This document shows positions 3,942 to 62,268 of a DNA stretch of 64,000 nucleotides, piece by piece. Position numbers and translations under genes: made by a program. Every line of letters starts with the position of its first letter. Position 1 is the first letter of the stretch. This stretch comes from a virus (lineage: Duplodnaviria; Caudoviricetes). Under the pieces are notes generated by a model. It did no database searches, had not been told where the DNA came from, and saw only the letters and a program-made list of their open reading frames with translations. Location of the stretch: the IMG/VR virus record IMGVR_UViG_3300032135_000291, positions 1-64,000 of that record. One strand, 5' to 3'.

Positions 3942-4718
3942 ATGAGGCTCTACGACGAAGAGCCCGGGCCTCGCTGCACGGCGGGCTCGCACGGGCACGT
4001 CTCGGTAAAAGGGGCGCTGCGGTGTCCTGCATGCCAGACAACAAGGAAGCCCAGATTCAAGTGGTGGTGGGAAGGAACTATCACCCCCGAAGCGTGGGCC
4101 GCCATGCAAGTTTTCTCCCTGTCCCAAAGGGTGCTGCTGGTTGCGGTACGCGACGAGCGCGCAACCCCAGAGTTGTTGTGGATGGCGGCGCGCCACGCGA
4201 CCGAGAGGACACATGGCAGCAGGGACATCATGAAGGCCATCGCCAAGCACGAGTCGTGCCCCGCCGATGTGACGAGTGCGCTGTTTGACACGGAAGAGCG
4301 CGAGATTCACGAGGCGTTGGCCGAAAACCCGTCGGCGTCGCCCGAGATACTAGGCCGCCTTGCAATGTGCAATGACTTTCCCGTGCGCCTGTCTGTCGCG
4401 AGCCACCCAGAAACTCCGCTGCCCGTGCTGATGGAGTTGCTGATAGAGGTGATGGTCAACGGCGACAGGTACGACGGCCCCATCAAGATGGCGATCCTCG
4501 AACACGAAGCAACACCGGCCAAGGTGGTGCGTGCGGTCATGTCCGGACAGCATCCCGTCCGAGCGCTGACCGGGATCGACCCTCGCCACGGCCGCGCGAT
4601 GAAGTACATCCGCACCCAGCCGTGGTGGGAGATGAAGCCCTCGAGCCGAGAAGTGAAACACGCCCTGGCCATTCAGGCCGGAAGCCTACCGAAATCGGGT
4701 CTCGGTCGACAAGAGTGA
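3942..4718 (+). CDS. Zn-knuckle family protein with leucine-rich-variant (LRV/HEAT-like) repeats
   Basis: N-terminal CTAGSHGHVSVKGALRCPAC; repeats ALAENPSASPEIL and SVASHPETPLPVL; C-terminal WWEMKPSSREVKHALAI matches the family tail. Confidence 0.75.
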   Translation: MRLYDEEPGPRCTAGSHGHVSVKGALRCPACQTTRKPRFKWWWEGTITPEAWAAMQVFSLSQRVLLVAVRDERATPELLWMAARHATERTHGSRDIMKAIAKHESCPADVTSALFDTEEREIHEALAENPSASPEILGRLAMCNDFPVRLSVASHPETPLPVLMELLIEVMVNGDRYDGPIKMAILEHEATPAKVVRAVMSGQHPVRALTGIDPRHGRAMKYIRTQPWWEMKPSSREVKHALAIQAGSLPKSGLGRQE

Positions 4719-4721
4719 GCG

Positions 4722-4731
4722 TGGATACCTT
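4722..4731 (+). promoter_or_regulatory. Class B promoter motif
   Basis: TGGA-TACCTT, 7 nt before ATG 4739. Confidence 0.7.
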
Positions 4732-4738
4732 TGCGGGC

Positions 4739-4873
4739 ATGCCAAAGAAATGCACCGCGCTGCACACCGGTCACGCAACAGCCCGAGGGCTTGCCGCCTG
4801 CCCTGCTTGCACTCCAAACGCTGGCGTCACTCGAGCGTTGACCCCTCGCGCTGCCGACACACCGGTGCGGTAG
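4739..4873 (+). CDS. 44-aa stand-alone Zn-knuckle peptide
   Basis: MPKKCTALHTGHATARGLAACPAC...; leaderless behind class B motif; same C-x6-H-x8-C-x2-C spacing as the 3942 protein. Confidence 0.7.
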   Translation: MPKKCTALHTGHATARGLAACPACTPNAGVTRALTPRAADTPVR

Positions 4874-4909
4874 TCGTCACACTTGACCGGCCAATCGCCG
4901 CTATGATAA

Positions 4910-4921
4910 GTGTGGTAGATC
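4910..4921 (+). promoter_or_regulatory. Class A motif (imperfect)
   Basis: GTGTGG-TAGATC upstream of 4944. Confidence 0.4.
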
Positions 4922-4943
4922 AGTCTACTGAGGGATGTGAAGC

Positions 4944-5294
4944 GTGACGAAGGCTTTGGACGCGAATACCGTTGCGACTCGATCCGTTGTGCAGTTCTGC
5001 GCGCTTGAAGCGGGGTACTCGGTGCTCGAGATCAATAAGTTCACCGATGCGCCGAACTACTACTGCTCCGAGAGGTACTCGACAGGGGTGTTGCGGGCGC
5101 TCACGAATATGCAGCAGGCCACCGACAAGGCGATTCGCGCCACCGTGGTGAACGCCGTCAGGATCGGTGCCCTCACGGTGCCGCAGGCTGCCGCGAAGGT
5201 GGACCTCCCCGAGGCGACCGTCCGCTCGTGGGGCGTTCTTCCGGAATGGGAGCGGTACGCAGCCGAGGCGGATGATCAGAGCCGCGCCGCATAG
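4944..5294 (+). CDS. Hypothetical protein, possible C-terminal HTH
   Basis: SD GAGGGA before GTG; LTVPQAAAKVDLPEATVRSW is HTH-like. Confidence 0.6.
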   Translation: MTKALDANTVATRSVVQFCALEAGYSVLEINKFTDAPNYYCSERYSTGVLRALTNMQQATDKAIRATVVNAVRIGALTVPQAAAKVDLPEATVRSWGVLPEWERYAAEADDQSRAA

Positions 5295-5366
5295 CGCCGG
5301 TCCCGGTTTATCTTCCTGCCCGTAGATCCGGTTTGCAGCCCTCCGTCTCAACCAGATTGAGGGGGC

Positions 5367-5376
5367 TGGATACCTT
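5367..5376 (+). promoter_or_regulatory. Class B promoter motif
   Basis: TGGA-TACCTT-N6-ATG 5383. Confidence 0.75.
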
Positions 5377-5382: not shown

Positions 5383-5883
5383 ATGACCGCTCCACAATGC
5401 TCAGCACCTCTCCAGGGACACGTCCCTGGGTCGCTCTTGCAGCAGACATGCCCGAAGCACGGGCTGGCGTCGGGTCGCACTATCTCGCTCCCGCCGCTCC
5501 TGGTGCCCCCGGCTCCATCTTCCGCACCCGCGTCCGGGGGCGAGGTCGTCACCAACGGTCTTGTGGCTCGCCGCAGTGACACGGACAACTCCTACTTCCT
5601 GGTCATGGCCGAAACGGGCCTCCCTGTGTTCCGGACCGAGCAGCGACGTGTTGCGCGTCGCGGAACAACCCCCGGGCCCGGCAACTTCGAGACCGAAGAT
5701 CAGGCGATCGAGTGGGCACGCGACAAGTACCCGTTCCTGAGTGACGTGTCCTCCAAGATCGCCCGCACCACACCGCGACGCCGCACCTACCGGTGCCCCG
5801 TATGCGACAGCCGGCTCATCCTGACCGAAGATTCGCGACGCATTTGCACGCACTGCGACGGCGTCGAGATCGATCGCTCATAG
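5383..5883 (+). CDS. Zn-knuckle family protein with C-terminal Zn ribbon
   Basis: CSAPLQGHVPGSLLQQTCPKH at the N-terminus; CPVC..CTHC at the C-terminus. Confidence 0.75.
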   Translation: MTAPQCSAPLQGHVPGSLLQQTCPKHGLASGRTISLPPLLVPPAPSSAPASGGEVVTNGLVARRSDTDNSYFLVMAETGLPVFRTEQRRVARRGTTPGPGNFETEDQAIEWARDKYPFLSDVSSKIARTTPRRRTYRCPVCDSRLILTEDSRRICTHCDGVEIDRS

Positions 5884-5919: not shown

Positions 5920-7020
5920 ATGGCGGCACGGTCGAAGTCGAAGGCTGGCGGTAAGCCGAAGGTTCCTTGCACGAACCCGGGGATCTGCGGCAACACCAAG
6001 AACCACATGGTTGGCACGTTCACGCAGAAGCGCTGCGACGAGATCACGAAGCGCCGCGCTGCCGGCGAGGTCATCACCGCAGAGAACGTCATGAGCGTCC
6101 GCCCTCCGGGCATGGAGGCGAGCGGCGACTTCGGTGCACGTAGCGACGAGGTGAGCGAGAAGATGAAGTCGCTCAAGCAGTCTGCCGAGGCGTGGAGGGA
6201 CTCGCCCCAGGACGCCCTCGACTTCGTGCGGTGGGCCAAGAACTTCACCGACTACTCGCCGTTCAACCGTCTGATGATCCACGTGCAGAACCCTGACGCA
6301 ACCGCTGTCGGCTCCGCGAAGAAATGGGGCGGGCTCGGCCGTGAGGTCGCTGAGGACGAGAAGCCGATCGAGATCTTTGCGCCCGGCATGGGCGGGGAGC
6401 GCGCCAAGAAGGACAAGGACGGCAACGTCGAACGTGACGCTGACGGCAAGCAGGTGATGGAGCGACGCTTCGTCAACCGATTCCGTGCAGTGTCCGTGTA
6501 CGACATCGCGCAGACCACGGGTGACACGCTGCCGGAGATCGAAACTCCGGTCGCAAACCCTGAACTGCTTGAACGTGTCGTCGTCGGACTCGAATCGGAC
6601 TACTTCGTCGCACCCATGGAGGTCGTGGCCGGAGCCGACACCCCAGCGCGAATGCTGGAAGACGGATCGATGGCGTACAACGCGTCTACGGCCGACGAAA
6701 GCCAGCGACTGGTGAACCGCCTCGTCGCGGTCGGTATGTCTGCCAGCGCCCGACTGCGCAAGGACACCGAAGCGCGAATCAAGGACCCCTCACGTCACTG
6801 GGGCGAGGCTGAGCACATGTACGCGGGTATCTCTGCCGCGTGGTCGCTGGGCCAGGATGCTGGCATCGACCTGACGGATCTTGCTGTTCAGAAGATGGCG
6901 GACTACAAGGGCAAGGAGCAGATTGCATCGCTCGCCGCCCACGGTTCGAAGGTCACTGAGCACATCGAGAACGTCCGCAACGGACTGCCCGCGGAGATCG
7001 CTGACGCCCTGGCGTCCTGA
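5920..7020 (+). CDS. ArdC-like ssDNA-binding / antirestriction domain protein with N-terminal Zn knuckle
   Basis: YSPFNRLMIHVQNPDATAVGSAKKW..GR.V...EKPIEIFAP and VYDIAQT are ArdC N-terminal domain hallmarks; SD AAGGAAGG. Confidence 0.75.
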   Translation: MAARSKSKAGGKPKVPCTNPGICGNTKNHMVGTFTQKRCDEITKRRAAGEVITAENVMSVRPPGMEASGDFGARSDEVSEKMKSLKQSAEAWRDSPQDALDFVRWAKNFTDYSPFNRLMIHVQNPDATAVGSAKKWGGLGREVAEDEKPIEIFAPGMGGERAKKDKDGNVERDADGKQVMERRFVNRFRAVSVYDIAQTTGDTLPEIETPVANPELLERVVVGLESDYFVAPMEVVAGADTPARMLEDGSMAYNASTADESQRLVNRLVAVGMSASARLRKDTEARIKDPSRHWGEAEHMYAGISAAWSLGQDAGIDLTDLAVQKMADYKGKEQIASLAAHGSKVTEHIENVRNGLPAEIADALAS

Positions 7021-24731: not shown

Positions 24732-25784
24732 ATGAGCCGTTGCAGCGCCCCAGTCTGGGGGCACAAGACCGACAAGTCGCGAGAGAAGTGTCCCGTGCAC
24801 CGGCTGAGCACGAAGGTCCCCGGGCGCCTTGCCGCGCCGCCGTCACCGCGCGGATCTTCTGGCGGCTCGGTGGACGACTTCCCCGAGCACACGTTCTTGG
24901 ATCCCGGGATGGTGGCCTCGATCGACTACTCCCGCACGACGCGAGGGCGCGACAAGTCGTACTCGCGTGAGTGGAAGGGCCTTCACACCGCGACGAAGGG
25001 GCAGATTCGCCCAGGTCGAATCAACACGGGGTACACGATCGCAAAGGTCGCAGACCTCGCGGGCGTCGTCCGCCTAGGACCGAAGCCCGTGGCGTTTGAC
25101 GCCTGCGACTTCCCGTCCGGGACCATGACAAACACCTACGCGGCTGTGATGTACGAAGCGTGCCGTTTCGCCGACGGGCTGGAAGTTACCGCCCCCGGCT
25201 CAGAGATCAACCGTTGCGTGGTGATGGGGAAACTGGTGGTCGGCGGAGGCGTGCGAGCGAAAGGGACCTACGTCAGCGGTCGCATATACATCAACGACGT
25301 GAATTCGGCCCTTGACGGTGTCGTCGTTGTCGGGCCCGTCAGTGCCCCGTGTAGCCCCGCCCTCGTGGTGGATTCGTACTCCGCGACGGGGTGGCTTCTT
25401 GGCCCAAACGTCTCTGGATTCAAGGACGGCTACTGTCGCCTCTCCCGTCCGGGGCAGTTGGTCGTCGTGCCGGACCACGAGTTGGACCGTCCGGTCGTAG
25501 AGGTCCCTGACGACGGCACGATCGGCGTGGTCACCGAGTCGGAGTCGTTGACCATGTTTGGCGACGCGTACGCGTCGCCCGTCAAGGAGGCTGCGGAGGT
25601 CGAACGCCGCATGCGGACGTTCTCGTCGCTCCTGGGCCGCCCCAAGGACGACTCTGACGGCCGGTGGCTTGACGGCCGCAACCATGGGGCCTGGACGACG
25701 CTGATCGACCTGGGCGGCATCGATGGCGACGAAGTCAACGAGGAGTCCCTTAGCGTGGCGTTGGCGCTGAGCCCGAACCCGTAA
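24732..25784 (+). CDS. Zn-knuckle / LALxPNP family protein (beta-rich middle)
   Basis: CSAPVWGHKTDKSREKCPVH ... WLDGRNHGAW ... VALALSPNP*. Confidence 0.8.
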   Translation: MSRCSAPVWGHKTDKSREKCPVHRLSTKVPGRLAAPPSPRGSSGGSVDDFPEHTFLDPGMVASIDYSRTTRGRDKSYSREWKGLHTATKGQIRPGRINTGYTIAKVADLAGVVRLGPKPVAFDACDFPSGTMTNTYAAVMYEACRFADGLEVTAPGSEINRCVVMGKLVVGGGVRAKGTYVSGRIYINDVNSALDGVVVVGPVSAPCSPALVVDSYSATGWLLGPNVSGFKDGYCRLSRPGQLVVVPDHELDRPVVEVPDDGTIGVVTESESLTMFGDAYASPVKEAAEVERRMRTFSSLLGRPKDDSDGRWLDGRNHGAWTTLIDLGGIDGDEVNEESLSVALALSPNP

Positions 25785-25823: not shown

Positions 25824-26864
25824 ATGAGCCTCCCGCGGTGCACCGCACCTACCGGTCACCGGACGCATTCGGGAAGGGCGAAGTGCCCGCTCCATAGTCA
25901 CTCTCCGATACAGGGCCCGATCCGTCGCCCAGCGGTGCCGAAGGGCGTGGAAGTACCCGTGAACCAGGAAAGCGCCCTTGAAGCGTTGCTCACGCTGCCT
26001 CCCACGGCCACCCTCGCCGAGACGATGACCGCGTACTACCGGCTGGAGCGCCAGGCGCGCGAGTTCTTCGCGGGCAACGAGAGGACTCGCCTCGACGTAT
26101 TGCGCGTACTCGCAGAGGAGCGCGGCGAGACGATTCGCGCTCGGGTCGCCATCAACAAGAGCGCCGACGAGCCGCTGCTTCGCACCCTCGCGGAGGACCC
26201 CGACCCCGAGGTGCGCAGGGTCGTCGCCCACAACTTCAAGTGCCCGCCCGACGTTCTGGATGCACTCTCGCGCGACGCGGTGAGGGAGGTGCGAAAGTCT
26301 GTCGGGATGTGTCACCGAACGCCACTCCCCGCACTCGAGCGGTTGGTTCGCGACCCCGTGCGGTTCGTTCGAGGCGCGGCCATGACGAATCCTGTGTGGC
26401 CACGAGAGGACCTGGAAAGGCTAGGGGCCGAATTCCGGGAGACGACGGAAGAGGAGGGTCTGGCCGCGAACGTCAACCTCCCACCAGAGATGCTTCGGGA
26501 GATCGCCCTGCGCGCCCCGCGCACCCCCGGCAAGAAGGAGTCGCGCAAGTTCCGTGCCGCGGCGAACCCGTCGACACCGGAGGATGCCCTGCTGGTTTTG
26601 GCGGACACCGGGGACTACAACTCGGGGCTCTTGCGAAACCCCAAGGTGCCGTCCATCGCCGTCCAGCGGATTGCGGAGGGCGGGGACGACCCGCACGTGC
26701 GGAAGCGGGCGCTCGAAGTCCGTGCCGCACGCATCTTCGAGGCCACCGGGGTACAGCCCGACAACGTGGGCGCTCAGGACTACCTCGTCGACACCGAGTG
26801 GTGGACGCTGACGCCGGACTCCCCCGAGGTGACGCTAGCCCTAGCGCTCTCCCCGGACTTGTGA
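25824..26864 (+). CDS. Zn-knuckle / LALxPNP family protein with LRV/HEAT-like repeats
   Basis: CTAPTGHRTHSGRAKCPLH; LAEDPDPEVRRVVAHN repeats; WWTLTPDSPEVTLALALSPDL*. Confidence 0.8.
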   Translation: MSLPRCTAPTGHRTHSGRAKCPLHSHSPIQGPIRRPAVPKGVEVPVNQESALEALLTLPPTATLAETMTAYYRLERQAREFFAGNERTRLDVLRVLAEERGETIRARVAINKSADEPLLRTLAEDPDPEVRRVVAHNFKCPPDVLDALSRDAVREVRKSVGMCHRTPLPALERLVRDPVRFVRGAAMTNPVWPREDLERLGAEFRETTEEEGLAANVNLPPEMLREIALRAPRTPGKKESRKFRAAANPSTPEDALLVLADTGDYNSGLLRNPKVPSIAVQRIAEGGDDPHVRKRALEVRAARIFEATGVQPDNVGAQDYLVDTEWWTLTPDSPEVTLALALSPDL

Positions 26865-26952: not shown

Positions 26953-27663
26953 ATGAGCAGCAACCCAATGATTCAGCCCTGCCCCAACGGCGGCAAGTGC
27001 GGCGCACGCACCCACGACGTGACCAAGAACCAGTTCCGTGAGTGCAAGCGGCTGGCCTCCTCGGGTATCAGGTCGATGGCCGGGGCGAGTGCAGCGCCCC
27101 CACCTCCGTCTGCTCCGCACGCCTTTGATGCCGCCGCGTTTGATGAGTCCATGGCGCAGGTGCGCACGCGACTGGCCTCCGCTGAGACTGACGCGCAAGA
27201 GGCAATACGCCGCCGGTTCGTTGGTCACGTAGATGCGCAAATTGCAGTGGCAGAAACCGTGTGCCGTCGCATCGAAAGACTGGACTGGGAACCGGATGGC
27301 GACAATGACGAGATGACTCTGGCGCTGACGTGCGGTTGCAGCGGCGAAGGTGTCGACGCCAGACGCTTCTTGGACGAGCACGACGTCTCGTCAAATATCG
27401 CGCTGGGCGTGCTCGAATCCTCGCGGGAGTGGCGGGAGTTCCCGACGTTCTCCGGATCGTCCCCAGTCAGCGCCGTCGACGACGAGGAAGACGACTACGA
27501 GCAGGTCTGGCGGTGGGACGGCATGGGTAACCACATGGAGGCGTTTGGGTTGAGTGCGAACAACGACGGTGCGCGCGCCTTCCTGCGCGACTACGAGTGG
27601 TGGGATCTCAACTCGGAGTCCCCGGAGGTCGCTCTCGCGAAAACGCTTCATCCGGGCTCGTAG
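26953..27663 (+). CDS. Zn-knuckle (CCHC) family protein with shared C-terminal domain
   Basis: CPNGGKCGARTHDVTKNQFREC; WWDLNSESPEVALAKTLHPGS*. Confidence 0.8.
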   Translation: MSSNPMIQPCPNGGKCGARTHDVTKNQFRECKRLASSGIRSMAGASAAPPPPSAPHAFDAAAFDESMAQVRTRLASAETDAQEAIRRRFVGHVDAQIAVAETVCRRIERLDWEPDGDNDEMTLALTCGCSGEGVDARRFLDEHDVSSNIALGVLESSREWREFPTFSGSSPVSAVDDEEDDYEQVWRWDGMGNHMEAFGLSANNDGARAFLRDYEWWDLNSESPEVALAKTLHPGS

Positions 27664-27683: not shown

Positions 27684-28406
27684 ATGAGCAATCCGATGAT
27701 CCAGCCCTGTCCTAACGGCGGAAAATGTGGCGCACGCACCCACGACGTGTCGAAGGCTCAGTTTCACGAGTGCAAGCGGGCGGCGTTCGGGTTGCCGCCG
27801 ACGGCCGTCTGGGCTTCTGCCCCCGTGCTGCAATCACCCGAGCCCATTGACCCAGTTGGGTCCACCGACTTCGAGGCCGCCATCAAGACTGCGTGCGACG
27901 CCGCGGGGGCGGCCGAGACGGCTTCTTATCACGCCAGGAAGAAGGCCTTCGCGGCGCAAATCGAGGCGGCGGTAGTGGTCGCCCGGGCTACCTGCAAGAG
28001 TCTCGAATCCATGAAGTGGACAGGAGACGATGAGGGCGGACAGTCAACGACGCTGGCCTTGTTCTGTGGGTGTGAGCAGGCTGAATGCGATCCCGAGGAC
28101 GGACTCGATGCTGACGGAGAGTTTCTGAGCGCGCACGGCATCGACTCCTGGAACGCGCAAGGCGCGCTCGACGGCAGGCCCGACAAGGGCGACTTCGAGT
28201 CATTTCACTGGGAGGCGGACCTCAACGAGCCCAGCAAATATGACTACAAGTGGACGCGCGACTTCTTCGACGAGCACGTCACGGCCCTCGGTGTTGACGA
28301 GTCAAATAAGCCCGCTCGTGATTTCCTGCGCGATTATGAGTGGTCGACGCTGACGCCAGAATCGCCAGAGGTGGCCCTAGCGAAGACGCTGCACCCCGAC
28401 GTGTAG
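27684..28406 (+). CDS. Tandem paralog of 26953
   Basis: CPNGGKCGARTHDVSKAQFHEC; WSTLTPESPEVALAKTLHPDV*. Confidence 0.8.
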   Translation: MSNPMIQPCPNGGKCGARTHDVSKAQFHECKRAAFGLPPTAVWASAPVLQSPEPIDPVGSTDFEAAIKTACDAAGAAETASYHARKKAFAAQIEAAVVVARATCKSLESMKWTGDDEGGQSTTLALFCGCEQAECDPEDGLDADGEFLSAHGIDSWNAQGALDGRPDKGDFESFHWEADLNEPSKYDYKWTRDFFDEHVTALGVDESNKPARDFLRDYEWSTLTPESPEVALAKTLHPDV

Positions 28407-40914: not shown

Positions 40915-41874
40915 GTGAGCGAGTGCACAGCGAAGTCCGGGCAGCACGTCTCCGAGCGCGCGGCGCAGAAATGTCCCGTGCACAAGGTCCGTGACGGAAG
41001 TGCACCAATGTCTCCGGCCCGCGCCGCGGGGCTCGCCAGGGCGAAGGCCGCACCGCCCGCCTTCGCCGGGCCGCTCAACTTGCCTCAGAACAGCGCGTCG
41101 TCATCCTCTCTGGTCCCCCTCAAAGGGTTCCACAACGTCGGGTTCCGGCTCGAAGCCAAGCACCGGGCCGTGTTTCGTCCAGGGACGTCATTCGGTGGCT
41201 GCACCTTCGAGGACGGCCTTGGCCGTTCAGATGACGGATCCGCCGACAAACACGCTGCATTGGCGCTCATCGACTGCGAGGTCTACGGCGACTCTCACCT
41301 GGGCACCGGGTCGCACATCCTCGACAGCACCGTGCATGGCTCCTTGTCTCTCGACAACGCACGCGCAGAGCGCTGCACAATCGAAGGGTCGGCGGAGGTC
41401 CACTTCGGTGCCGAGTTGGTCGACTGCGAGGCCAAGCACGTGGGCGTGGACACTGGGGCGACGGCATCTTTCACGAAGCCGGTGGGCGTAGGGTCCGGGC
41501 CGCAGGTGCACATCAACACGGGCCTCTGGGGGCAAACGCCTGCGAAGATCCACCTCGCGGCCGGCGGCGTCATCCACGCCTCCCCGGAGGACGTAGAGGT
41601 GACAGGTGCTCTCGACTTCGTTGTGCTGGTCGAGCCGCCGAGCAAGGTCGCAGAAGATAGCGCCGTGTGGAGGTCGAACGAGAACATCGCCAGGGCGCGT
41701 TACGCGACGGCCGTGGCGACCGATCGCTCCGACCCCTTGTGGCTTTCGACCCAGAATACCGACGCGTGGCAGATGATCTTCGATGGCGGATACGTGGACG
41801 CAACGGACTCCGACCCGCAGCCCGTACCGGAAGAAGTCCGGTCGTGGGTGCTCGCGCTGTACCCCAATCCGTAG
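40915..41874 (+). CDS. Zn-knuckle / LALxPNP family protein (beta-helix-like middle)
   Basis: CTAKSGQHVSERAAQKCPVH ... WLSTQNTDAW ... WVLALYPNP*. Confidence 0.8.
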   Translation: MSECTAKSGQHVSERAAQKCPVHKVRDGSAPMSPARAAGLARAKAAPPAFAGPLNLPQNSASSSSLVPLKGFHNVGFRLEAKHRAVFRPGTSFGGCTFEDGLGRSDDGSADKHAALALIDCEVYGDSHLGTGSHILDSTVHGSLSLDNARAERCTIEGSAEVHFGAELVDCEAKHVGVDTGATASFTKPVGVGSGPQVHINTGLWGQTPAKIHLAAGGVIHASPEDVEVTGALDFVVLVEPPSKVAEDSAVWRSNENIARARYATAVATDRSDPLWLSTQNTDAWQMIFDGGYVDATDSDPQPVPEEVRSWVLALYPNP

Positions 41875-44580: not shown

Positions 44581-46146
44581 ATGTCGAAGGCCTTGATTCC
44601 CTGCCCATTGGGTGCGCAGTGCCGCACCGGCTCCACCCTGGGGCACGAACCCGGAAGCGACGCGTTGCGTGACTGCACCGCAGCCGCAGTCGGCTCGGGA
44701 CAGGCTTCGGCCACCCGCGGTCAGCACGACCCGACCGCCGCGTACCAGCAGTTAACCGACCCCATGAAGCGCCTGACCTCTCAGGTCAAGCGCGCGTTCG
44801 GCGCTGACGGCCGCGGTATCCCCAACCTTGTGGGCCCTCCCGGTATCGGCAAGTCGGCCATCGTCGAGAATATGGCGCGGTCCATGAACGCGGACTACAT
44901 GATCTTTGACGTGTCATCCCTGGATCCGGACATCTTCAACGGCATTCCGTACAACCCGGGTGGCGAGGTCCCCGAAGGCATGATGGTCATGGCAGGGCGC
45001 CTCTACGAGCGCGAGGTCGTGTCGATGTTCTCCCGCTCGGACAAGAAGGACAAGCCGCTACTCGTCTTCCTCGATGAGATCAACGGTGGCAAGGAAGCGC
45101 TGATGTCGTCCTTGCAGAAGGTCATGACCGGACGCATGTTGCCGCAGGAGGGTGTGTCGCTCAACGACAACGTCTTCCTGGTCGCAGCGATGAACGATGC
45201 AGACCAGACGTCCAACGGTAACGACCTCGCCGCGGCCATGGTGTCGCGTCTGACGCCGATCCCCGTGAACCCGAACTTCGACGAGTGGACGAACGGAGAA
45301 CTGACCTTCTGGGGCCAGGGGTACAACGAAGAGCGAACATCGGCTGTCGCGCGCGCCCTGGACCTCAAGGCTCCCACAGTCGAGCAGCACCTCATGGCGG
45401 CCGCCTCGGTGGCCTCCTACTTGGAGGACATGGGCAACCCCCGCTTGAAGTCGCTCTCGCGAGACGAAACCTCAATGAACCTCTTCTCGGAGCCGTTGGA
45501 CGAGGACGACCTGACCACCAAGGTGGGTCAGCCTCGGTCGTGGTCCAAGGCCATTTCCGGCATCGCTATGGCGATCGCGAACCCGGACGAAGGGGAGTCG
45601 GACACCAGCGCCTACGCAGATGTCATCCGATCCAACTGTGGCGAGCGTGCCGCACGCGGCTTCGTCGCGTACCACGAGACTCACCGCGACCTCCCCGACA
45701 TCAAGGGCGCCCTGGACAAGGGGACGCTTGGGGACGCACCCACCGAATGGGCACGCAACGGTCGCAGCGACATCCCGATGTTCACCATGTCCGTCCTGGC
45801 GAACCAGAACTTCGAGAACGACATCGAGAAGATGGGTGTCGCGGTCGACCTCATCGGCGAGATCGCGGGGAAGTTCCCCGACATCGCTGGTGCGAAGGTC
45901 GCACCCATCGTGAAGCAGTGGACCGGCCAGATCCGCGACGAGTATGGCGTTTCCAGCGAGCAGGGCAAGGCGCTGTCGACAATGCTTGCCGAGAAGATCA
46001 ATAAGAAGGGCAACGAGCCGCTTCGTGTCGCGGTCGGAAGGTCCGGCGTTGTTGCAGGCCTCGTCGACGGACGCTCGGACATCGACCAGATTGCGGTGAG
46101 CGCAGCGAAGGCTGCCGCGAACGACGACGACAAGAAGAAGAACTAG
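44581..46146 (+). CDS. MoxR-like AAA+ ATPase with N-terminal Zn knuckle
   Basis: CPLGAQCRTGSTLGHEPGSDALRDC; GPPGIGKS, FLDEIN, AAMN, PRSW. Confidence 0.88.
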   Translation: MSKALIPCPLGAQCRTGSTLGHEPGSDALRDCTAAAVGSGQASATRGQHDPTAAYQQLTDPMKRLTSQVKRAFGADGRGIPNLVGPPGIGKSAIVENMARSMNADYMIFDVSSLDPDIFNGIPYNPGGEVPEGMMVMAGRLYEREVVSMFSRSDKKDKPLLVFLDEINGGKEALMSSLQKVMTGRMLPQEGVSLNDNVFLVAAMNDADQTSNGNDLAAAMVSRLTPIPVNPNFDEWTNGELTFWGQGYNEERTSAVARALDLKAPTVEQHLMAAASVASYLEDMGNPRLKSLSRDETSMNLFSEPLDEDDLTTKVGQPRSWSKAISGIAMAIANPDEGESDTSAYADVIRSNCGERAARGFVAYHETHRDLPDIKGALDKGTLGDAPTEWARNGRSDIPMFTMSVLANQNFENDIEKMGVAVDLIGEIAGKFPDIAGAKVAPIVKQWTGQIRDEYGVSSEQGKALSTMLAEKINKKGNEPLRVAVGRSGVVAGLVDGRSDIDQIAVSAAKAAANDDDKKKN

Positions 46147-46164: not shown

Positions 46165-48096
46165 ATGAGCACGCCAGGCGTCACGCGCACCATCCCCGCC
46201 GGGGGCATCGCATGCCTCAGCAACGGGCGGTGTGGAGAGTCGACCGGCTGGCACCACATGGGCTCCGACGCGCACAAGCGCTGCATCCACGCTGCCGAGG
46301 CACTGGATGCGACCGGAGCGCGGGTCAGGGACGCCGTGACTGCGGGCAATATGCGGGCCAATCAGCAGCCAGGTGACCACGAGCGTCGTCCGCTGCGCCG
46401 ACTGGAGCAGGACGAAAGCGAACTCCTCAACAGCACCCGCGCGATGGCCTTGAAGTTCCTGCCGTTCTACTCGCACATGATGTACCGCGTGCGCCCTGTC
46501 GCCGTAGACGAGGAGCCGACGATCCTGCCCGATGGCACACCCCAGTGGGAGATGCGTGCCGCTATCTCTCGGGACTGGCGCCTCATGCTCAACTTTGACT
46601 GGATGCGCTACGAGTTCGAGCAGGGCTACGAGAACAACAAGGACCGTGTTGCCAAGGCAATGATCGAGTCAGACGTCACGCCGACCGACGAAGCGGTTCG
46701 CCGCGGCTGCGACACGGCGACGTCCGTCCAACTCGGGAAGGTGCTCCTCCACGAGATGGGGCACGCGATGTACAACACGTGGGAAGTCGCCGAGGAGAGG
46801 AAACTCGACGGCCAGACCCTGAACCGCGCAGAGGACGCTGTCATCAACAACGCGTTGCGCGTGCTGGGTCACGGCAAGGCCCCGCTCGAGAACAAGGACA
46901 TCAACGGCGAGTTCCTCCCGAACGCTGTCTACGGTGGAACCGTGGAGTGTGACGACCCCAACCACTCATGGCACTACATCGACCCGGAGACGGGCGAAAC
47001 GTCTTCGCGTTGCTCGTATGAGCAGACGATTTGGCACTACTACGAGCGCCTCGACAAGCAGGAGAAGGAAGACTCAAAGCAGGGGTCAACCGGCGACGGC
47101 GACCCCGACGGTGCGCCAGACGCCGCGAAGGGCGAGGCAAAGGGCGATCAGAAGGGCCAGGCTGGCGGCTCGCAAAGAACCGAAGGCTCTCCCTCTGGTT
47201 CCACGCCCGGGGCCGAAGGCGACGGTGACGGCGAAGGAGGCGAAGGCGCCAAGCCCTCTGACGCATGTGGACGCAAGGCTGCCGAGAAGTACGAGGACGA
47301 CCCATACGAGAAGGGGAGCATCAGCGAGTCGCAGAAGCAGGACTCGCTCGACGTGACCGCATCGGAACTTGACGAGTGGGGCAAGGAGAACGAGGAACGC
47401 GCCAAGAAGGCAGGCTTCGGCTCCGATTCGATGGCCCGCAAGTGGGCCCAGCACCGCCGCAAGATCGACGGGATTCACTGGGACGCGCTGCTCAAGAGGA
47501 CCATACGCAAGACCGTGGAGTCCAAGAAGAGCACGCGCGAGACCTACACAAAGGTTCGCCGGCGCGACGCCTCCAACTCCGGGATCCTGCGTCGCGGCAC
47601 CAAGGCGGGCTACATGCCCTCGATCGCCGCGGCAGTCGACACCTCGGGTTCGATGTCGCCAGACGACCTCTTCGCCGCGTACAACAGCGTGTACTCCGTC
47701 ATCAAGAGGACGGGCATCAACCACCTGGACGCGTTCGCTGTCGACTCCGAAGCGAAGACCAAGCCGATTGCGATCAAGAAGGCCGAAGACTTGGCTCCGC
47801 TACTTCGCGGTGGAGGCGGTACTGACATGTGCGCCGGCATTGAGGTGGCAGCACAGGCGGACAAGGACGTCTGCATCGTCTTCACTGACGGAGTCGTCCC
47901 GTGGGGCAAGATGGCCGAGCGCCCGAGTGACACCAAGAAGATGGACGTGATCATCGCCATCATCGCGGAGAACGATGATGCGTGTGCGCGCTTGGCGGAC
48001 GACGTGCCCTCCTGGATGAGCACGGTCAAGATCAACAAGGAACTGCTCGACGAGGGCCGCGAGAAGAAGACCCCCAAGGACGGGTACCTTGGCTAG
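46165..48096 (+). CDS. HExxH metallopeptidase-like plus vWA domain protein (DUF2201-type) with N-terminal Zn knuckle
   Basis: CLSNGRCGESTGWHHMGSDAHKRC; LLHEMGH; VDTSGSM, GGGGTD, FTDG. Confidence 0.85.
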   Translation: MSTPGVTRTIPAGGIACLSNGRCGESTGWHHMGSDAHKRCIHAAEALDATGARVRDAVTAGNMRANQQPGDHERRPLRRLEQDESELLNSTRAMALKFLPFYSHMMYRVRPVAVDEEPTILPDGTPQWEMRAAISRDWRLMLNFDWMRYEFEQGYENNKDRVAKAMIESDVTPTDEAVRRGCDTATSVQLGKVLLHEMGHAMYNTWEVAEERKLDGQTLNRAEDAVINNALRVLGHGKAPLENKDINGEFLPNAVYGGTVECDDPNHSWHYIDPETGETSSRCSYEQTIWHYYERLDKQEKEDSKQGSTGDGDPDGAPDAAKGEAKGDQKGQAGGSQRTEGSPSGSTPGAEGDGDGEGGEGAKPSDACGRKAAEKYEDDPYEKGSISESQKQDSLDVTASELDEWGKENEERAKKAGFGSDSMARKWAQHRRKIDGIHWDALLKRTIRKTVESKKSTRETYTKVRRRDASNSGILRRGTKAGYMPSIAAAVDTSGSMSPDDLFAAYNSVYSVIKRTGINHLDAFAVDSEAKTKPIAIKKAEDLAPLLRGGGGTDMCAGIEVAAQADKDVCIVFTDGVVPWGKMAERPSDTKKMDVIIAIIAENDDACARLADDVPSWMSTVKINKELLDEGREKKTPKDGYLG

Positions 48097-49195
48097 CAAG
48101 ACCTCGGTGGCGCCAGTGCTGTGCGACAACCCGTGGTGCGGCACCAAGACGCGATCGCACATGTCCGCGTTCGCGAAGCGACGCTGCGACCAGAGCAAGG
48201 GTGCACAAGTACGCGTCCACGCCTCTCAGGTCGCCACACAGAAGCATTCGAGTCGTCAGAGCGCTGACGAGGCCCAAGCAGTATTTGGTGGCGACACAGA
48301 GCAAGGTACCGTCGGCTACAGCACGCTTCGTGACGGGCACTTCGAGGGCGCGGTGTTCGACAACGTCGTTCTCGCCGAGGCGCAGGGCGCGAACTTCGAG
48401 GGCGCTACCTTCGGCGAAGTCGTGTTCGACGGAGGGGTCATCGAGTGCTCCTTCGCGGGCGCCTCCGGCTTCGACGTGCGGATCCAGAAGGTCATCTCCG
48501 ACACACGCATGGACGACATGCGTGTCGCCGGATTGCACGTCGAATCGGGGACCGAGGTGCGAGACCTGTCCGTGTCCGGGGCGCTCATCAACGACTCAAC
48601 GTGGGGCAGGCATAGCGACGTCAAGGACTCGTCCTTCCGGTTCGCATCCATGCGCCGCAGCACCTTTGGAGAGTCGATCCAGTTTCGCAACTGCGACTTC
48701 ACCGGCGTCGACCTGGCCCGGTCCGAGTTCGCGGGATCGTACGCAGGGAAGTCGACCTTTTCCAGCGTCATCATCGAGCGGGCGAACTTCTCGGGAGTCG
48801 ACCTCACCAACGTGACCTTCGCGGACGTCCCGCTCGCCGAAACGATCTACTTCGTCGACGGCGACACGCTCCCCATGCTGAACCCCGGAACGCTGGACCC
48901 GTCCGACTTCGGCCGCGAGTTCATGACCCGGGCACTGACCGACGAGCAGTACTCCGACTTCGTCACGAATCTGGGCGCCTCCGAGGCGGAAGTACGCGGG
49001 GCGATGTCACGACTGTCGCCCGCTTTCGTGCCGGTCTACGAGGACGGTGCTGTGGGCACTCGAGGCGAGTTGTTGCGGCGGGCCATGCTTGGCGACGACG
49101 TGGGGATGCTGACAAACATCCAAGCGGAACTATGGGACGCGTCACGCCCCCATAACCGAATGCTGGTCGAGTCTCCGGACGCTTTGTACTCCTGA
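48089..49195 (+). CDS. Pentapeptide-repeat protein with N-terminal Zn knuckle
   Basis: CDNPWCGTKTRSHMSAFAKRRC; ANFEGATF, CDFTGVDLARSEF, ANFSGVDLTNVTF. Confidence 0.75.
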   Translation: MASKTSVAPVLCDNPWCGTKTRSHMSAFAKRRCDQSKGAQVRVHASQVATQKHSSRQSADEAQAVFGGDTEQGTVGYSTLRDGHFEGAVFDNVVLAEAQGANFEGATFGEVVFDGGVIECSFAGASGFDVRIQKVISDTRMDDMRVAGLHVESGTEVRDLSVSGALINDSTWGRHSDVKDSSFRFASMRRSTFGESIQFRNCDFTGVDLARSEFAGSYAGKSTFSSVIIERANFSGVDLTNVTFADVPLAETIYFVDGDTLPMLNPGTLDPSDFGREFMTRALTDEQYSDFVTNLGASEAEVRGAMSRLSPAFVPVYEDGAVGTRGELLRRAMLGDDVGMLTNIQAELWDASRPHNRMLVESPDALYS

Positions 49196-54891: not shown

Positions 54892-55494
54892 ATGAGCAAG
54901 TGCACCTCGAGAACCGGCCGTCACCTCCCCGGTTCGTGGACCGAGCAGGAGTGCCCCGAGCACGGCTTGCTTGCCGCCAGGAGGGCCACCGCGGCGGCCC
55001 CCACAGCGAGCATGAGCGCCCCTCAGCCGGCTCCGGGACGTGACCAGCCGCCCGCCTACGAAGGGACGCTGGGGAGCCTTCCGGAAGAGATCGTAGAGGA
55101 CCTGATTTCTCGTCGTTCGCGACGAGGTGCGAGCCGAGAAGAGAGCGCGGCGCTCCTCGGAGAGTTCGTGCGGTCACACTCCGGCGCCAACCTCGCATCC
55201 GCGCTGGTCTACAACAACTTCGCCAGGACGCCGAACGTGGACCGTATCGTTCGCGACATCGACGCGACCCGGCCGCCAACCCGCCGCCCGTCACCGAAGC
55301 CGCAGTCAGCGCGGATCGAGACGCTACGAGGCGGAGACACGTTCGAGGACGGAGAGTTCCGCGCTCGCGAAGAGGTCCTCGAAGTCACCGACCAGGGCGA
55401 CAACATCTACGTCACCACAGACGCCTCCCAGGACGCCGGTGCGGGTGCATACCGGTTCCGCAAGGGCGAGACCGTTTGGGCGACCACCGCGTAA
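54892..55494 (+). CDS. Zn-knuckle family protein within the tRNA array
   Basis: CTSRTGRHLPGSWTEQECPEH. Confidence 0.75.
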   Translation: MSKCTSRTGRHLPGSWTEQECPEHGLLAARRATAAAPTASMSAPQPAPGRDQPPAYEGTLGSLPEEIVEDLISRRSRRGASREESAALLGEFVRSHSGANLASALVYNNFARTPNVDRIVRDIDATRPPTRRPSPKPQSARIETLRGGDTFEDGEFRAREEVLEVTDQGDNIYVTTDASQDAGAGAYRFRKGETVWATTA

Positions 55495-55723: not shown

Positions 55724-56152
55724 ATGCCCACATGCAATATCCGTCACGAACCAGGGTCGGACGCACAGAAGAAGTGCGCCGTGCACGGCCGTCGAGTGGG
55801 CCGCGGGGTGGCAGCGAGTCTCACGCCGCCAATGCTTCGGCAGAAGACTCCGGAGGCCGCGATCCCGGAGTTGCCCGACGACGTGGCAGAGGGCCTTCTT
55901 CGCCGCCGCACGCAGAAGGGGTACTCCCACGATGCGTCGGTCGAACGGCTTGCGGAGATTGCGTCCGACGCCGAACTATCAGCAGTGGAAGTCAAGTACG
56001 CCTTGGTCAACGAGGACTTCGAGGACAGCGTCGTCAGTGCCGGGCTCGTGAGCGAGATGGTGCGGGGCGGACGCAGGATCAAGGACCTTTCGGCTCAGAT
56101 CGAGGCGGCAGAGTCGCGCTCTCCCGCGAAGGTCGCCGAAGCGACTGACTAG
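55724..56152 (+). CDS. Zn-knuckle family protein within the tRNA array
   Basis: MPTCNIRHEPGSDAQKKCAVH; SD AGGAG. Confidence 0.72.
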   Translation: MPTCNIRHEPGSDAQKKCAVHGRRVGRGVAASLTPPMLRQKTPEAAIPELPDDVAEGLLRRRTQKGYSHDASVERLAEIASDAELSAVEVKYALVNEDFEDSVVSAGLVSEMVRGGRRIKDLSAQIEAAESRSPAKVAEATD

Positions 56153-57153: not shown

Positions 57154-57729
57154 GTGCCCGCAGAGTGCCGAGTGAAACACGTCCCAGGCTCGCAGTCAGA
57201 GAGCCTGTGCCGGACGCACGGCGCGCGCGGCCGCGGACGTGGCTTCCGCCCTCCGGCACCCACACAGGAGACGGTGCAACGCGGATCCGTGGAGATGCCG
57301 GCCTGCGACGGGGACTCCTCCGAGCAGCGGGCCGAGATGCTTGCCGCGAACGGACCGATCGACACCCTTGCGGCGCAGCAGGGGCTGCTTCCGCTGAATG
57401 ACCGCGGCGTCTCGCTGCGCAAGGCGGCCACCGGTAAATGGCTCGTCCGCCTGACAATGCTCGAAGGCGAACCCGAGGCGGGGGAGTACGGGTTCGGGCG
57501 CACGCCCGAGGAGGCCTTCTACGCGGCGCTGACCGACTACACCGACGCTCCCGACGGCGCGGACGTCCTGATCAGCCGGGATCCAGAGAACTCGCTCGTA
57601 TCAGCGTCGGACGTCAGCGCGGTGTACGTGCTCGACCTGCATGACGAACGCGACTCCGAAGCGGCCAGGCCCAGCGACGATTCGGCCCGTGCATGGCTCT
57701 GTCGTCCTGATGGAGTGTTCTCCCTCTAA
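57154..57729 (+). CDS. Zn-knuckle family protein within the tRNA array
   Basis: CRVKHVPGSQSESLCRTH. Confidence 0.72.
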   Translation: MPAECRVKHVPGSQSESLCRTHGARGRGRGFRPPAPTQETVQRGSVEMPACDGDSSEQRAEMLAANGPIDTLAAQQGLLPLNDRGVSLRKAATGKWLVRLTMLEGEPEAGEYGFGRTPEEAFYAALTDYTDAPDGADVLISRDPENSLVSASDVSAVYVLDLHDERDSEAARPSDDSARAWLCRPDGVFSL

Positions 57730-57919: not shown

Positions 57920-57931
57920 GCGTGGTAGACT
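57920..57931 (+). promoter_or_regulatory. Class A promoter motif before tmRNA
   Basis: GCGTGG-TAGACT. Confidence 0.55.
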
Positions 57932-57943
57932 TCTCCCGTACAA

Positions 57944-58340: not shown

Positions 58341-58377
58341 CAAAACGGATTACTCACGTAGTCCCGTGTTCCAGTTT

Positions 58378-58424
58378 GGTGCCCACTTGCATCGCCGAGA
58401 GGCGACGTGTGTGGGCACCTTTTT
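58378..58424 (+). terminator. Hairpin with U-tract after tmRNA
   Basis: GGTGCCCAC..GTGGGCACC-TTTTT. Confidence 0.55.
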
Positions 58425-58497
58425 GCCGGTGAAGCACAATTGGCCGTGCGCTCGACCTGTAATCGAGAGGCAGAGGGTTCGACCCCCTCCACCGGCT
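58425..58497 (+). tRNA. tRNA-Thr(TGT), A8 and C33
   Basis: CTCGA-CCTGTAA-TCGAG. Confidence 0.85.
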
Positions 58498-58529
58498 CCT
58501 AGCCCCCGCGGGCCGCCCCACGCTCACTC

Positions 58530-58602
58530 GCCCTCGTGGCTCAGCGGATAGAGCAGCGGATTTCTACCCCGAAGGTCGCAGGTTCGAATCCTGCCGAGGG
58601 CA
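58530..58602 (+). tRNA. tRNA-Arg(TCT), weak anticodon stem
   Basis: GCGGA-TTTCTAC-CCCGA (two terminal mismatches). Confidence 0.8.
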
Positions 58603-58692
58603 CACATCACGCCAACGCCGCGATCGGCCATTCCGTCGCGCGCGCACAAAGCATGGCGCAAGCATCAACAACTCGAAGGGAGGTGCAAGGCC

Positions 58693-60216: not shown

Positions 60217-60248
60217 TTTTGTCCTGATATTCTGAAAGGAAGTGCACC

Positions 60249-60509
60249 ATGTCCGAGAGCCCATTCAGTGGAATCGGCGAGACCGCAAGTTCCACCCCTG
60301 ACCAGCCCGCACAGGCCCCGAAGAGCAATGTTCGCGCGCACCTGAGGGCGATCGTCGGCACGATCCTTGTACTCGTCGGCTTCGCCTGGAAGTTCTTCGC
60401 CGGTAGCGCCTCTGGCGCCGACAGCAGCACTCTGGTCGACGCCGCATGGCTCGCCCCGATTGTGGTTGGTGGCGCGCTGCTCGTATGGAGCATGAGGCGT
60501 CGCACCTAA
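60249..60509 (+). CDS. Small two-TM membrane protein
   Basis: Two hydrophobic helices; SD AAGGA; AAGTGG-TAGTTT upstream. Confidence 0.65.
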   Translation: MSESPFSGIGETASSTPDQPAQAPKSNVRAHLRAIVGTILVLVGFAWKFFAGSASGADSSTLVDAAWLAPIVVGGALLVWSMRRRT

Positions 60510-60532
60510 GCGCGGTCTTCTCGCCCTTTGAG

Positions 60533-60544
60533 GTGTGGTAGTTT
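60533..60544 (+). promoter_or_regulatory. Class A promoter motif
   Basis: GTGTGG-TAGTTT-N6-ATG 60551. Confidence 0.7.
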
Positions 60545-60550
60545 TGACTC

Positions 60551-60865
60551 ATGACTAACGCAACTCTTGGAGAATTTAACGCTACCCTCGGCGAGTTTCT
60601 TGCATGGTCCGGTAAGCCGGCCCGTGAAGGCAGTGCACTTGAACGTGCGGCCATCGCGCTCGTGGAAGAACTCGCAGGGCAGTTCCTGAAAGAACGAAAC
60701 GACGCGATGATCGCTCTTGACGCAAATGCACCCTTCGAGCCCTTGCACGTCATTGATGGCGGCCTCACGCAGAAGCGGACCGCCGAAGAGATCCAGTGCA
60801 TGGCCGACCACCCGAGTGCCCGCGGGCACGGGGCGCAACGGTTGCAGGCGCTACCAGTTCGGTAG
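60551..60865 (+). CDS. Hypothetical protein (leaderless)
   Basis: ATG 6 nt after the class A -10. Confidence 0.6.
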   Translation: MTNATLGEFNATLGEFLAWSGKPAREGSALERAAIALVEELAGQFLKERNDAMIALDANAPFEPLHVIDGGLTQKRTAEEIQCMADHPSARGHGAQRLQALPVR

Positions 60866-60875
60866 GGCAGGCCCG

Positions 60876-60885
60876 CGGATACTCT
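60876..60885 (+). promoter_or_regulatory. Class B promoter motif (leadered)
   Basis: CGGA-TACTCT, then SD GAGG and GTG 60907. Confidence 0.6.
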
Positions 60886-60906
60886 GTAAAGAACAGAGAG
60901 GTATTC

Positions 60907-62268
60907 GTGACACGAAAGCAGAACACGGGCACGCAGGCGGGTCTCCTTGACTGCCCTGCGTGCGGTCGCGCGCACCGCGTTGGGTCCGACAGGTACAAGT
61001 TGTGCCAGGCGCGGCTTCAACCCGGGGGCGGGGCGCACCCTGCCGTTCGCGCGCGTCCCGTCGTTGTTGCTTTCGGGGAACTCTCCCGCACGGGCGAGGG
61101 GGAGCGACCAGCGCGCGAGCCGATGCCTCACCCGGTCTTCTCTGCCCAGGCGCTGCCACGCGACGTCCAGGCGGCCCCGCAGGACTCGCACGAGACCATT
61201 CCAACGACGCGTCCCGAGTCCAAACGGCTCGTTGCCACACTGCGTGCAGCGGCCGCCTCGGCGGTCCGCGAGTGGCGCGCCAAGGGCGCGGAGCCCACCC
61301 AGCACATGATGTTCGACATGGACGTGTACCGCGACGAGGTCATCGACCTCCTCGATATCCACATAGAGACCACGCGAGACGCCGAGCAAGCGCTGGCCTC
61401 GCGCGGGCTCGGATCCGCCACCGCAGGGTCGAGCGAGCACGCCGAACGGCTGTGCTACCACGCCATCAGGACAGTCAAGGGCCTCGCCATCCACCCGTCT
61501 GTCATGGCTCGCATTCTCGCGAGGGCAGATATTGGCTCCGGCTACGACTCCCGCGACTTCACCAAGTTCGCGATCGGCCTCCGCGCCGTCGCTCACACCA
61601 ACCCCGCAGTCCGCCGCGTGCTGTCCAAGCCCACAGAGGACGTCGACCCGAGCGACCTCAACGCCGTCGCGGCGCTCCTGCGCAATTTTGCCGCCACACG
61701 CTCCGGGCGCGTGCGACTCGACGAGGCGGGCCGCGCGAGAAGCGAAGTGCTTCGCGAGCACCTCGCCGGCTTCGGTCCGGACGCAATCACCGAGGTCAAC
61801 GAAACGATCGAACGGATCCATGCCGCAGCAGCCGCTCACGGGGAGTACTCGCCGCTGTCGGCGTCCGACGACTGTGGCGGGCTACTCGCGCTGCCGTCCG
61901 TTGTGGCCGGAGACCTCCTTGCGCACGGGCTCTCGTATGCCCAGTGGCGCGATCTTGGGTGGTCTCAGTACGCAGGAGACTCGCCCCTCATGCTGCTCGA
62001 GCCGGCGCTGGTCGCAATGCGTCGCGACGGAATGCCTGACGAGATGATCCTCGCGATTCGGCCAGATGTGGGGTCGGACGACACCGAGTATCCGTACTCC
62101 GTTTCACGATTCCTGGCAGGCCCCGGCGCATACGCCGTCGGCGGCCAAAGCGAACGGGGCGTTGAGGCGTTCGGCTCCGACGTCATCACGAACGAGGCGG
62201 AACAGATCCGTGAGCGGTTCGAGCGCGACACCCGCGGACGCAAGACGGACCGGCTTCCCGGCGTCTAA
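60907..62268 (+). CDS. Zn-knuckle (CCHC) family protein
   Basis: CPACGRAHRVGSDRYKLC followed by a Pro-rich linker and a helical domain. Confidence 0.72.
   Translation: MTRKQNTGTQAGLLDCPACGRAHRVGSDRYKLCQARLQPGGGAHPAVRARPVVVAFGELSRTGEGERPAREPMPHPVFSAQALPRDVQAAPQDSHETIPTTRPESKRLVATLRAAAASAVREWRAKGAEPTQHMMFDMDVYRDEVIDLLDIHIETTRDAEQALASRGLGSATAGSSEHAERLCYHAIRTVKGLAIHPSVMARILARADIGSGYDSRDFTKFAIGLRAVAHTNPAVRRVLSKPTEDVDPSDLNAVAALLRNFAATRSGRVRLDEAGRARSEVLREHLAGFGPDAITEVNETIERIHAAAAAHGEYSPLSASDDCGGLLALPSVVAGDLLAHGLSYAQWRDLGWSQYAGDSPLMLLEPALVAMRRDGMPDEMILAIRPDVGSDDTEYPYSVSRFLAGPGAYAVGGQSERGVEAFGSDVITNEAEQIRERFERDTRGRKTDRLPGV

Follow-up and report, generated by a model that had tools for sequence, protein, structure and literature searches.

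Small shared N-terminal modules mark cargo in several secretion, packaging and immune systems. The T4 capsid-targeting sequence, the P1 Dar proteins and the packaging signals of extracellular contractile injection systems (eCIS/PVC) are of this kind: each places a short N-terminal module on unrelated proteins of one mobile element. These signals are unstructured peptides without cysteine (Cys) or histidine (His) ligands, and some of them are cleaved. We know of no description of a metal-knuckle version of such modules from mobile elements of high guanine-plus-cytosine (GC) content. The DNA described here is the first 64 kb (hereafter the window, to whose numbering positions refer unless stated otherwise) of a single 74,915-bp contig, IMG/VR record IMGVR_UViG_3300032135_000291. 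About 19 proteins of this one element begin with a common Cys/His knuckle, referred to below as the tag, and appear to share a private promoter; the knuckle is homologous to the tip of a widespread immune protein. As far as we are aware, such a cohort is new. In contrast to the T4, P1 Dar and eCIS/PVC addresses, it comes from a record in which neither capsid genes nor a cleavage motif was seen, and the tag is also found on host immune proteins.

Further points of comparison are offered by small metal-binding domains. The Azotobacter LRV protein carries an N-terminal Fe-S domain (LRV_FeS; PF05484, 1LRV) before its LRV repeats, and like some members of the cohort it thus has a Cys-rich N-terminal domain ahead of such repeats. 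It differs from the tag, whose ligands include His, which is set off from the repeats by a long leash and which also stands before non-LRV cargo; neither PF05484 nor PF05253 (zf-U11-48K) gave a match in the six frames of the record at E<=10. CHHC fingers (zf-U11-48K, Gtsf1) and retroviral CCHC knuckles are small metal fingers with four ligands, as the tag is predicted to be, and may share the beta-beta-alpha fold of its models, but their ligand identities and spacings differ from those of the tag. CHHC fingers have been described as confined to eukaryotes; Gtsf1 combines N-terminal fingers with a disordered tail, and its ZnF1 binds tRNA (bioRxiv 10.1101/2020.08.11.246769).

An earlier, sequence-only reading had claimed that 17 genes of the window start with a Cys/His tag. 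Inspection of the starts bears this out: the pattern is present at 17 of 17, within the first 3-40 residues of an open reading frame (ORF) with high GC at third codon positions. Two more tagged genes lie past the window, at 71907 (plus strand) and 73567 (minus strand), so that the record total is 19, about one third of all genes. Within the first 30 residues after a start, the core C-x3-6-H-x8-9-C is found 18 times, whereas 2000 residue-shuffled proteomes contain it 0.13 times on average and at most 3 times; this comparison with shuffled controls sides with the sequence-only reading. C, H and C are invariant in an alignment of the 19 N-termini, and a profile built from these tags recovers exactly these 19 places, and no others, in the six-frame translation of the whole record.

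Two layouts occur. In type 1, the C, H and C of the core are followed two residues on by H or C (C-P-x-H/C after the core); in type 2, an extra Cys ahead of the core replaces the trailing ligand. Because the invariant core and stretches such as H-E-P-G-S-D-A are common to members of both types, the two are regarded as one family in which the fourth ligand has moved. The gene at 44581 has C-x7-H, and the one at 4739 is just a 44-codon ORF made of tag and linker. From the N-terminus the order is the knuckle (~25 residues), a basic stretch, a disordered leash rich in alanine, proline and arginine (Ala/Pro/Arg), and a mostly acidic cargo. The net charge of the first 45 residues is +3.9 in tagged versus +0.4 in untagged N-termini (p=4e-4). 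Linkers are rich in Ala, Pro, Arg and serine (Ser), and in some members RGG- or SYG-like.

Three candidate features were tried and rejected. A second strict linker motif did not hold up, as [AS][LAVIM]P is only mildly enriched (27/47 against a mean of 16.2). An RNA- or DNA-level cause of the conserved 5' ends was dismissed, since only the Cys and His codons are invariant, the spacing is variable, and the TIR-type tags described below stand behind ordinary Shine-Dalgarno leaders. A recurrent C-T-A-P-C-P-G-H-R-K... match (L007-L010, L013, L016, L021, L025, L026, L032, L042, L043) is due to chance and is not a tag; the stretch lies off-frame in a gene conserved across many IMG/VR contigs and comprises 26 codons with no start codon.

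The cargo had been described as that of 17 unrelated proteins. Its variety stands, with at least 10 unrelated families (LRV, ArdC-N, MoxR AAA_5, DUF2201 vWA-peptidase, pentapeptide and others without a family). The number does not: an all-against-all BLAST of the parts after residue 45 yields three paralogue groups (24732/28973/40915/73567; 25824/26953/27684/3942; 54892/55724) plus eight singletons.

Tag and promoter go together. The motif GGATA(C/T)NNT occurs 15 times in the record, 13 times just upstream of a tagged start; the other two sites are one 15 nucleotides (nt) upstream of the site at 44537, and one on the minus strand with no gene behind it. The longer pattern GGATAYNNT-N6-RTG is found seven times in the window versus 0.05 expected, each time at a tagged start. 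The promoter hexamer fits the actinobacterial -10 consensus TANNNT, and in most of the tagged genes the promoter has the form GGATAC(C/T)NT and stands 5-7 nt before the start codon; a -10-like hexamer this close to the start would give leaderless mRNAs. These motif counts support co-regulation of the cohort by a dedicated, probably leaderless, promoter.

The family extends well beyond this element. An exhaustive profile search with the type 1 tags against 1.84 billion representative proteins (E<=1e-3) returned 171 proteins, nearly all of them matched at residues 1-30. A minority have element-like tags (H-x-P-G-S, C-P-x-H-G, Ala/Pro/Arg linker) in front of LRV, DUF7007, DUF732 or nucleotidyltransferase cargo. 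The majority, ~230 amino acids (aa) in total length, begin with M-A-R-C-T-A-P-V-x-G-H-R-T-A-S-G-x-A-x-C-P-A-C-G and continue with a linker rich in Ser, glycine (Gly) and tyrosine (Tyr) and a TIR domain. This TIR group matches the PADLOC model PDLC00424 (ThsB1|ThsB) end to end, and its tags are very strongly conserved across phyla. In the loci that were read, the genes are solitary members of defence islands and ThsA is not among their neighbours; they are also found in prophages and plasmids. Such stand-alone TIR genes occur on many IMG/VR contigs, at a locus GC of 34-67%, and in bacteria without this element. Among 401 sampled Actinomycetota genomes there were two clear matches, both to this TIR protein.

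A hidden Markov model (HMM) of 78 TIR-type tags alone finds six type 1 tags of the element at E<=1e-4 and a seventh at 0.014, and none of the untagged sequences among 1115 ORFs. Conversely, an HMM restricted to the 12 type 1 tags of the element gives the TIR tags ~38-48 bits and scores no reversed decoy. As models built from either set alone find the other set, the two knuckles are considered homologous. In both families the knuckle occupies residues 1-30 with the pattern C-[TS]-A-P-x2-G-H-x8-C-P-x-[CH]-G, followed by a disordered leash and an effector domain. They differ in that the TIR leash is Ser/Gly/Tyr-rich and the cargo always TIR, whereas the leash of the element is Ala/Pro/Arg-rich, its cargo variable and its copies number 19. 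Pfam scans gave no TIR match in any tagged protein of the window, and PADLOC, PDLC00424 included, gave no match in the five window proteins scanned.

The tag is also conserved in related elements. The IMG/VR record G001 (69.5 kb, CheckV completeness 26%) is a syntenic relative. Its tagged genes include orthologues of those for the ArdC-like, MoxR, vWA and pentapeptide proteins, as well as of 60907 and two small genes. Every ligand is kept in the seven orthologue pairs, which are 32-52% identical overall, and tag identity is equal to or higher than that of the following linker. L005, a 12-kb metagenome contig (Logan SRR9031946), holds 13 type 1 tagged genes in tandem; their cargo is mostly LRV, and many are preceded by TGGATACCNT-N6-ATG promoters. 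In a second lineage, of 52-56% GC, an FtsK orthologue 41% identical and with a conserved N-terminus is directly followed by 2-5 type 2 tagged genes in eight loci (L179, L180, L186, L187, L190-L192, L197); these genes sit behind ordinary ribosome-binding sites. In other lineages (L185, L188, L189, L196, L198) FtsK is directly followed by a Metallophos (SbcD-like) gene, with no tagged genes. Since these sister lineages keep the FtsK-Metallophos junction without tagged genes, the FtsK-side tagged array is an accessory insertion and not backbone; the junction behaves as a hotspot for insertions.

No family for the tag was found in Pfam, NCBIfam or PHROGs. Pfam scans of the 17 proteins at E<=0.1, zinc-finger models and adaptor families included, gave no above-threshold match on the tag, and the check for a generic known domain thus came out in favour of the sequence-only reading; the only match on the tag was zf-tcix on the 44-aa ORF, with 15 bits against a cut-off of 31 bits. 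A sequence profile search of the PDB gave nothing better than E=0.16, and no paper describing the knuckle was found in literature searches. The statement that the tag is not a described family can be upheld for Pfam, NCBIfam, PHROGs and PDB sequences, with the qualification that PDLC00424 covers the knuckle within the full-length TIR protein.

Structure prediction points to a small beta-beta-alpha finger. The AlphaFold2 model of type 2, from a 30-sequence alignment, has a predicted local distance difference test (pLDDT) score of 82 and presents a beta-hairpin (strands 7-9 and 20-22) with a two-Cys knuckle and the His on strand 2, followed by a helix (26-37) with the last Cys. The type 1 model has a pLDDT of 68, with 72-82 over residues 1-20, and short helices after the His and after C-P-x-H. 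Foldseek gave no match to the PDB with either model, and a wide VIA-align search gave none for type 1. For type 2 the latter reached Z scores of 2.0-2.7 only, with small zinc fingers, the Sgf11 ZnF and the Gtsf1 CHHC in the top rows. A feature search of the ESM Atlas with the TIR-type tag gave no usable match.

The reading that is favoured, at a rough probability of 0.4, is that the tag is a tethering handle that holds unrelated cargo at one shared partner, most likely nucleic acid. The knuckle would be an autonomous N-terminal domain of ~25 residues, and from its ligand pattern we infer that it most likely binds one zinc ion through four Cys/His ligands. It would keep LRV/HEAT solenoids, pentapeptide beta-helices, ArdC-N, and MoxR with its vWA partner, cast here as binder, mimic and chaperone-type cargo, at a shared intracellular partner: most likely nucleic acid, or a polyanionic protein-nucleic acid assembly handling the DNA or RNA of the element. 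With most genes fired from one promoter class, the cohort would appear together. In the TIR protein, the same handle would bring the TIR domain to a target of this kind or cluster it there. Tethering is favoured because the tag is autonomous, basic and leashed, is fused to cargo of the binder, mimic and chaperone types, and would be expressed as a cohort. Nucleic acid is suggested as the partner by the charge and the finger-like fold, by linkers that are RGG- or SYG-like in some members, and by the ArdC-N cargo, a domain that binds single-stranded DNA.

Several points weigh against this reading. The type 1 model is only moderately confident, and the fold resemblance of type 2 to Sgf11 and Gtsf1 is a lead and no more, as the matches do not rise above noise. 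Aromatic residues that are conserved in the nucleic-acid-binding knuckles of retroviruses are missing from the tag. Proteins, too, can be bound by CHHC fingers (PMC13650160), so a finger fold leaves the choice of partner undecided. Why a pentapeptide DNA mimic or a MoxR hexamer should be placed on nucleic acid is not evident, and type 1, with two Cys and two His, could hold iron or 2Fe-2S rather than zinc.

The sequence-only reading had proposed a portable addressing module. A real, portable, linker-borne module in front of unrelated cargo stands, and the domain, its family, its conservation, its modular use and its link to the promoter are well supported. The TIR proteins elsewhere and the accessory nature of the array argue against an address specific to this element for export or packaging. 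Of the destinations named in the sequence-only reading, nucleic-acid docking would fit best. As such an address, the knuckle would be recognised by an FtsK/SpoIIIE-type ATPase, a VirD4-like coupling protein or a capsid machine, and anti-restriction-type proteins would travel with the DNA to the next cell. The N-terminal, leashed position ahead of unrelated cargo would suit this, as would ArdC-N and pentapeptide cargo for early protection of incoming DNA, the tagged genes that directly follow FtsK in the eight loci of 52-56% GC, and a conjugation-like module at 7-18 kb of the window (7059-18434). The module comprises an M23 peptidase (774 aa), a 905-aa coupling-protein relative and a membrane-anchored FtsK/SpoIIIE ATPase (1007 aa). 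The 905-aa protein (10665-13379) is a distant VirD4/TraG-type relative, with 23-26% identity to annotated type IV secretion DNA-transfer proteins of actinobacterial megaplasmids; no homologue was found in cultured phages, and the Curtobacterium megaplasmid with its nearest relative has no tags. However, unrelated bacteria have the same knuckle on their stand-alone TIR protein, next to which such machinery is absent, and sister lineages have FtsK and Metallophos without tags. A folded metal domain and an AAA+ hexamer would be unusual export substrates, and no conserved processing or cleavage site was seen after the tag. Across the 75 kb no gene for a capsid, portal or terminase was identified, which is weak evidence in a record only ~29% complete. 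Export or packaging is held to be unlikely, and less likely than tethering, because host TIR proteins carry the knuckle and the FtsK-side array is accessory.

Equally improbable is an assembly adaptor, in which the knuckles would bind each other or one protein hub and the TIR protein would join, or be triggered by, such assemblies; this would tie the cohort to TIR activation or inhibition. An adaptor would agree with the type 2 tags on each of the three products of the MoxR / vWA / pentapeptide operon, the AAA+ core included, as it would with the existence of a tag-only 44-aa ORF and with the cross-phyla conservation of the TIR-type tags, which suits a conserved partner. Clustering activates TIR enzymes, as reported in PMC10899771. 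A likeness also exists to the effector-associated domains of NTPase-centred conflict systems (Kaur et al. 2020, PMC7159879), in which a small N-terminal adaptor is placed on diverse effectors and a core NTPase, the tagged MoxR taking this place here; a text search of that paper found no Cys/His knuckle adaptor, and the Pfam scans noted above, adaptor families included, are silent on the tag. Moreover, the fold by itself can account for most of the conserved non-ligand residues (Pro after Cys, Gly, and Ser four after His). The least likely of the four readings is a metal or redox switch or a protective cap, which would sense zinc, iron or oxidation, or shield the N-terminus, and would act in cis with no common partner. 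Its appeal lies in the Cys2His2 and Cys3His sets, which are typical of reactive sites, and in the N-terminal Fe-S domain of the Azotobacter LRV protein; the tagged LRV cargo of 25824 aligns to residues 42-206 of 1LRV. The long disordered leash argues against control in cis, LRV_FeS (PF05484) matches nowhere in the record, and the consistent basic charge would be left unexplained.

A further proposal, held to be improbable, is that the knuckle is contested, the TIR immune protein and the early proteins of the element competing for, or meeting at, the same target. This target could be foreign nucleic acid as it enters or replicates, or else a hub to which such nucleic acid binds. TIR would then be clustered and switched on where invader knuckle proteins gather, or be crowded out by the 19 invader knuckle proteins. 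If true, this would be a first handle on invader sensing by the stand-alone TIR family. The homology of the knuckles joins a probable host-takeover or anti-defence cohort of rare, very large actinobacterial elements to a widespread stand-alone TIR protein. The knuckle partner, if found, would explain the role of the cohort and probably the placement or triggering of TIR. The tag can serve as a search key for more such cargo and as a short portable handle.

All 17 tagged genes of the window lie on the plus strand. The first, 3942..4718 (type 1, 258 aa, knuckle at nt 3975-4034), has LRV-repeat cargo and a start that overlaps the stop of the ResIII helicase gene (1148-3940). It is followed by the tag-only ORF 4739..4873 (type 1, 44 aa, knuckle 4751-4810) with the promoter GGATACCTT at 4723. 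This ORF thus has its own promoter and encodes a knuckle and short linker only; the nearest gene of G001 encodes 145 aa. Either the ORF is what remains of a truncated gene copy, or it acts in regulation as a free tag. The gene 5383..5883 (type 1, 166 aa, knuckle 5398-5460) has a weak C-terminal zinc-ribbon-like cargo, a probable leaderless promoter at 5368 and a tagged orthologue in G001. In 5920..7020 (type 2, 366 aa, knuckle 5968-6036) the cargo is ArdC-N, and the G001 orthologue, 51% identical, keeps all ligands.

Five further genes, each behind a probable leaderless promoter, are found between 24 and 30 kb. They are 24732..25784 (type 1, 350 aa, cargo group A, tail ending ALSPNP, knuckle 24741-24800, promoter 24717); 25824..26864 (type 1, 346 aa, LRV/HEAT cargo, knuckle 25839-25895, promoter 25809); 26953..27663 (type 2, 236 aa, cargo group B, knuckle 26980-27045, promoter 26938) and its paralogue 27684..28406 (type 2, 240 aa, knuckle 27708-27773, promoter 27669); and 28973..29833 (type 1, 286 aa, cargo group A, knuckle 28979-29038, promoter 28958). 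The gene 40915..41874 (type 1, 319 aa, knuckle 40924-40983, probable leaderless promoter 40900) also belongs to cargo group A and has a weak pentapeptide-like match. No tagged LRV relative was found in cultured phages.

The operon at 44-49 kb starts with 44581..46146 (type 2, 521 aa, knuckle 44602-44676), which encodes the MoxR-type AAA_5 ATPase and has its promoter at 44537 with a 35-nt leader; the G001 orthologue is tagged and 52% identical. The second gene, 46165..48096 (type 2, 643 aa, knuckle 46213-46284), encodes a DUF2201 vWA-like protein with a putative metallopeptidase, and the third, 48089..49195 (type 2, 368 aa, knuckle 48122-48187), pentapeptide repeats; both have tagged orthologues in G001. 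No cargo family was recognised in the remaining four genes, of which three lie in a tRNA array: 54892..55494 (type 1, 200 aa, knuckle 54901-54963, promoter 54878), 55724..56152 (type 1, 142 aa, knuckle 55733-55786) and 57154..57729 (type 1, 191 aa, knuckle 57166-57219, promoter 57115, G001 orthologue tagged). The last, 60907..62268 (type 2, 453 aa, knuckle 60952-61005, promoter 60877), has a tagged, 44% identical orthologue in G001.

Several tagged proteins (window 24732-41874; record 72599-73567) have a common C-terminal module ending in L-A-L-(Y/S)-P-N-P or a close variant. With a shared tag and a shared tail, these proteins are constant at both ends and vary in between. The tail itself is similar to a unit of the LRV repeat. 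On the contig L005, several genes are translationally coupled via C-terminal L-Y/S-P-N tails.

The host context of the cohort is a large actinobacterial mobile element. IMG/VR classifies the record as linear viral, CheckV gives a completeness of 29%, the GC content is 62-66%, and the plus strand holds nearly all genes. Since none of its genes was recognised as coding for a capsid, portal or terminase, the element may be a giant phage, a plasmid or a hybrid. A nucleotide search against plasmids and phages gave just two short matches covering 1% of the query, and DnaB and MoxR queries returned no close relative from IMG/VR. Besides the ResIII helicase, the untagged genes include N6/N4 DNA methylases and DnaB. 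The element has genes of its own for homologues of gyrase B and A (33433-37937) and for a sigma-70 region 2 protein (32432-33400). Past the window, a DnaG primase and a 489-aa RecA homologue are encoded (L001 2268-5557), as well as a prepilin-type peptidase, an SNF2 helicase and an exonuclease. Two neighbouring large untagged proteins (18498-23146) contain 5 and 8 DUF4379 treble-clef zinc-finger repeats, and the 8-repeat protein has a weak, sub-threshold match to the REase_MTES_1575 nuclease domain (28 bits against a cut-off of 38 bits). The tRNA genes, 35 in number, are arrayed at 50091-58603; G001 has 38 in a similar order, and its tagged genes at 53133 and 53877 occupy the place that matches that of 54892, 55724 and 57154.

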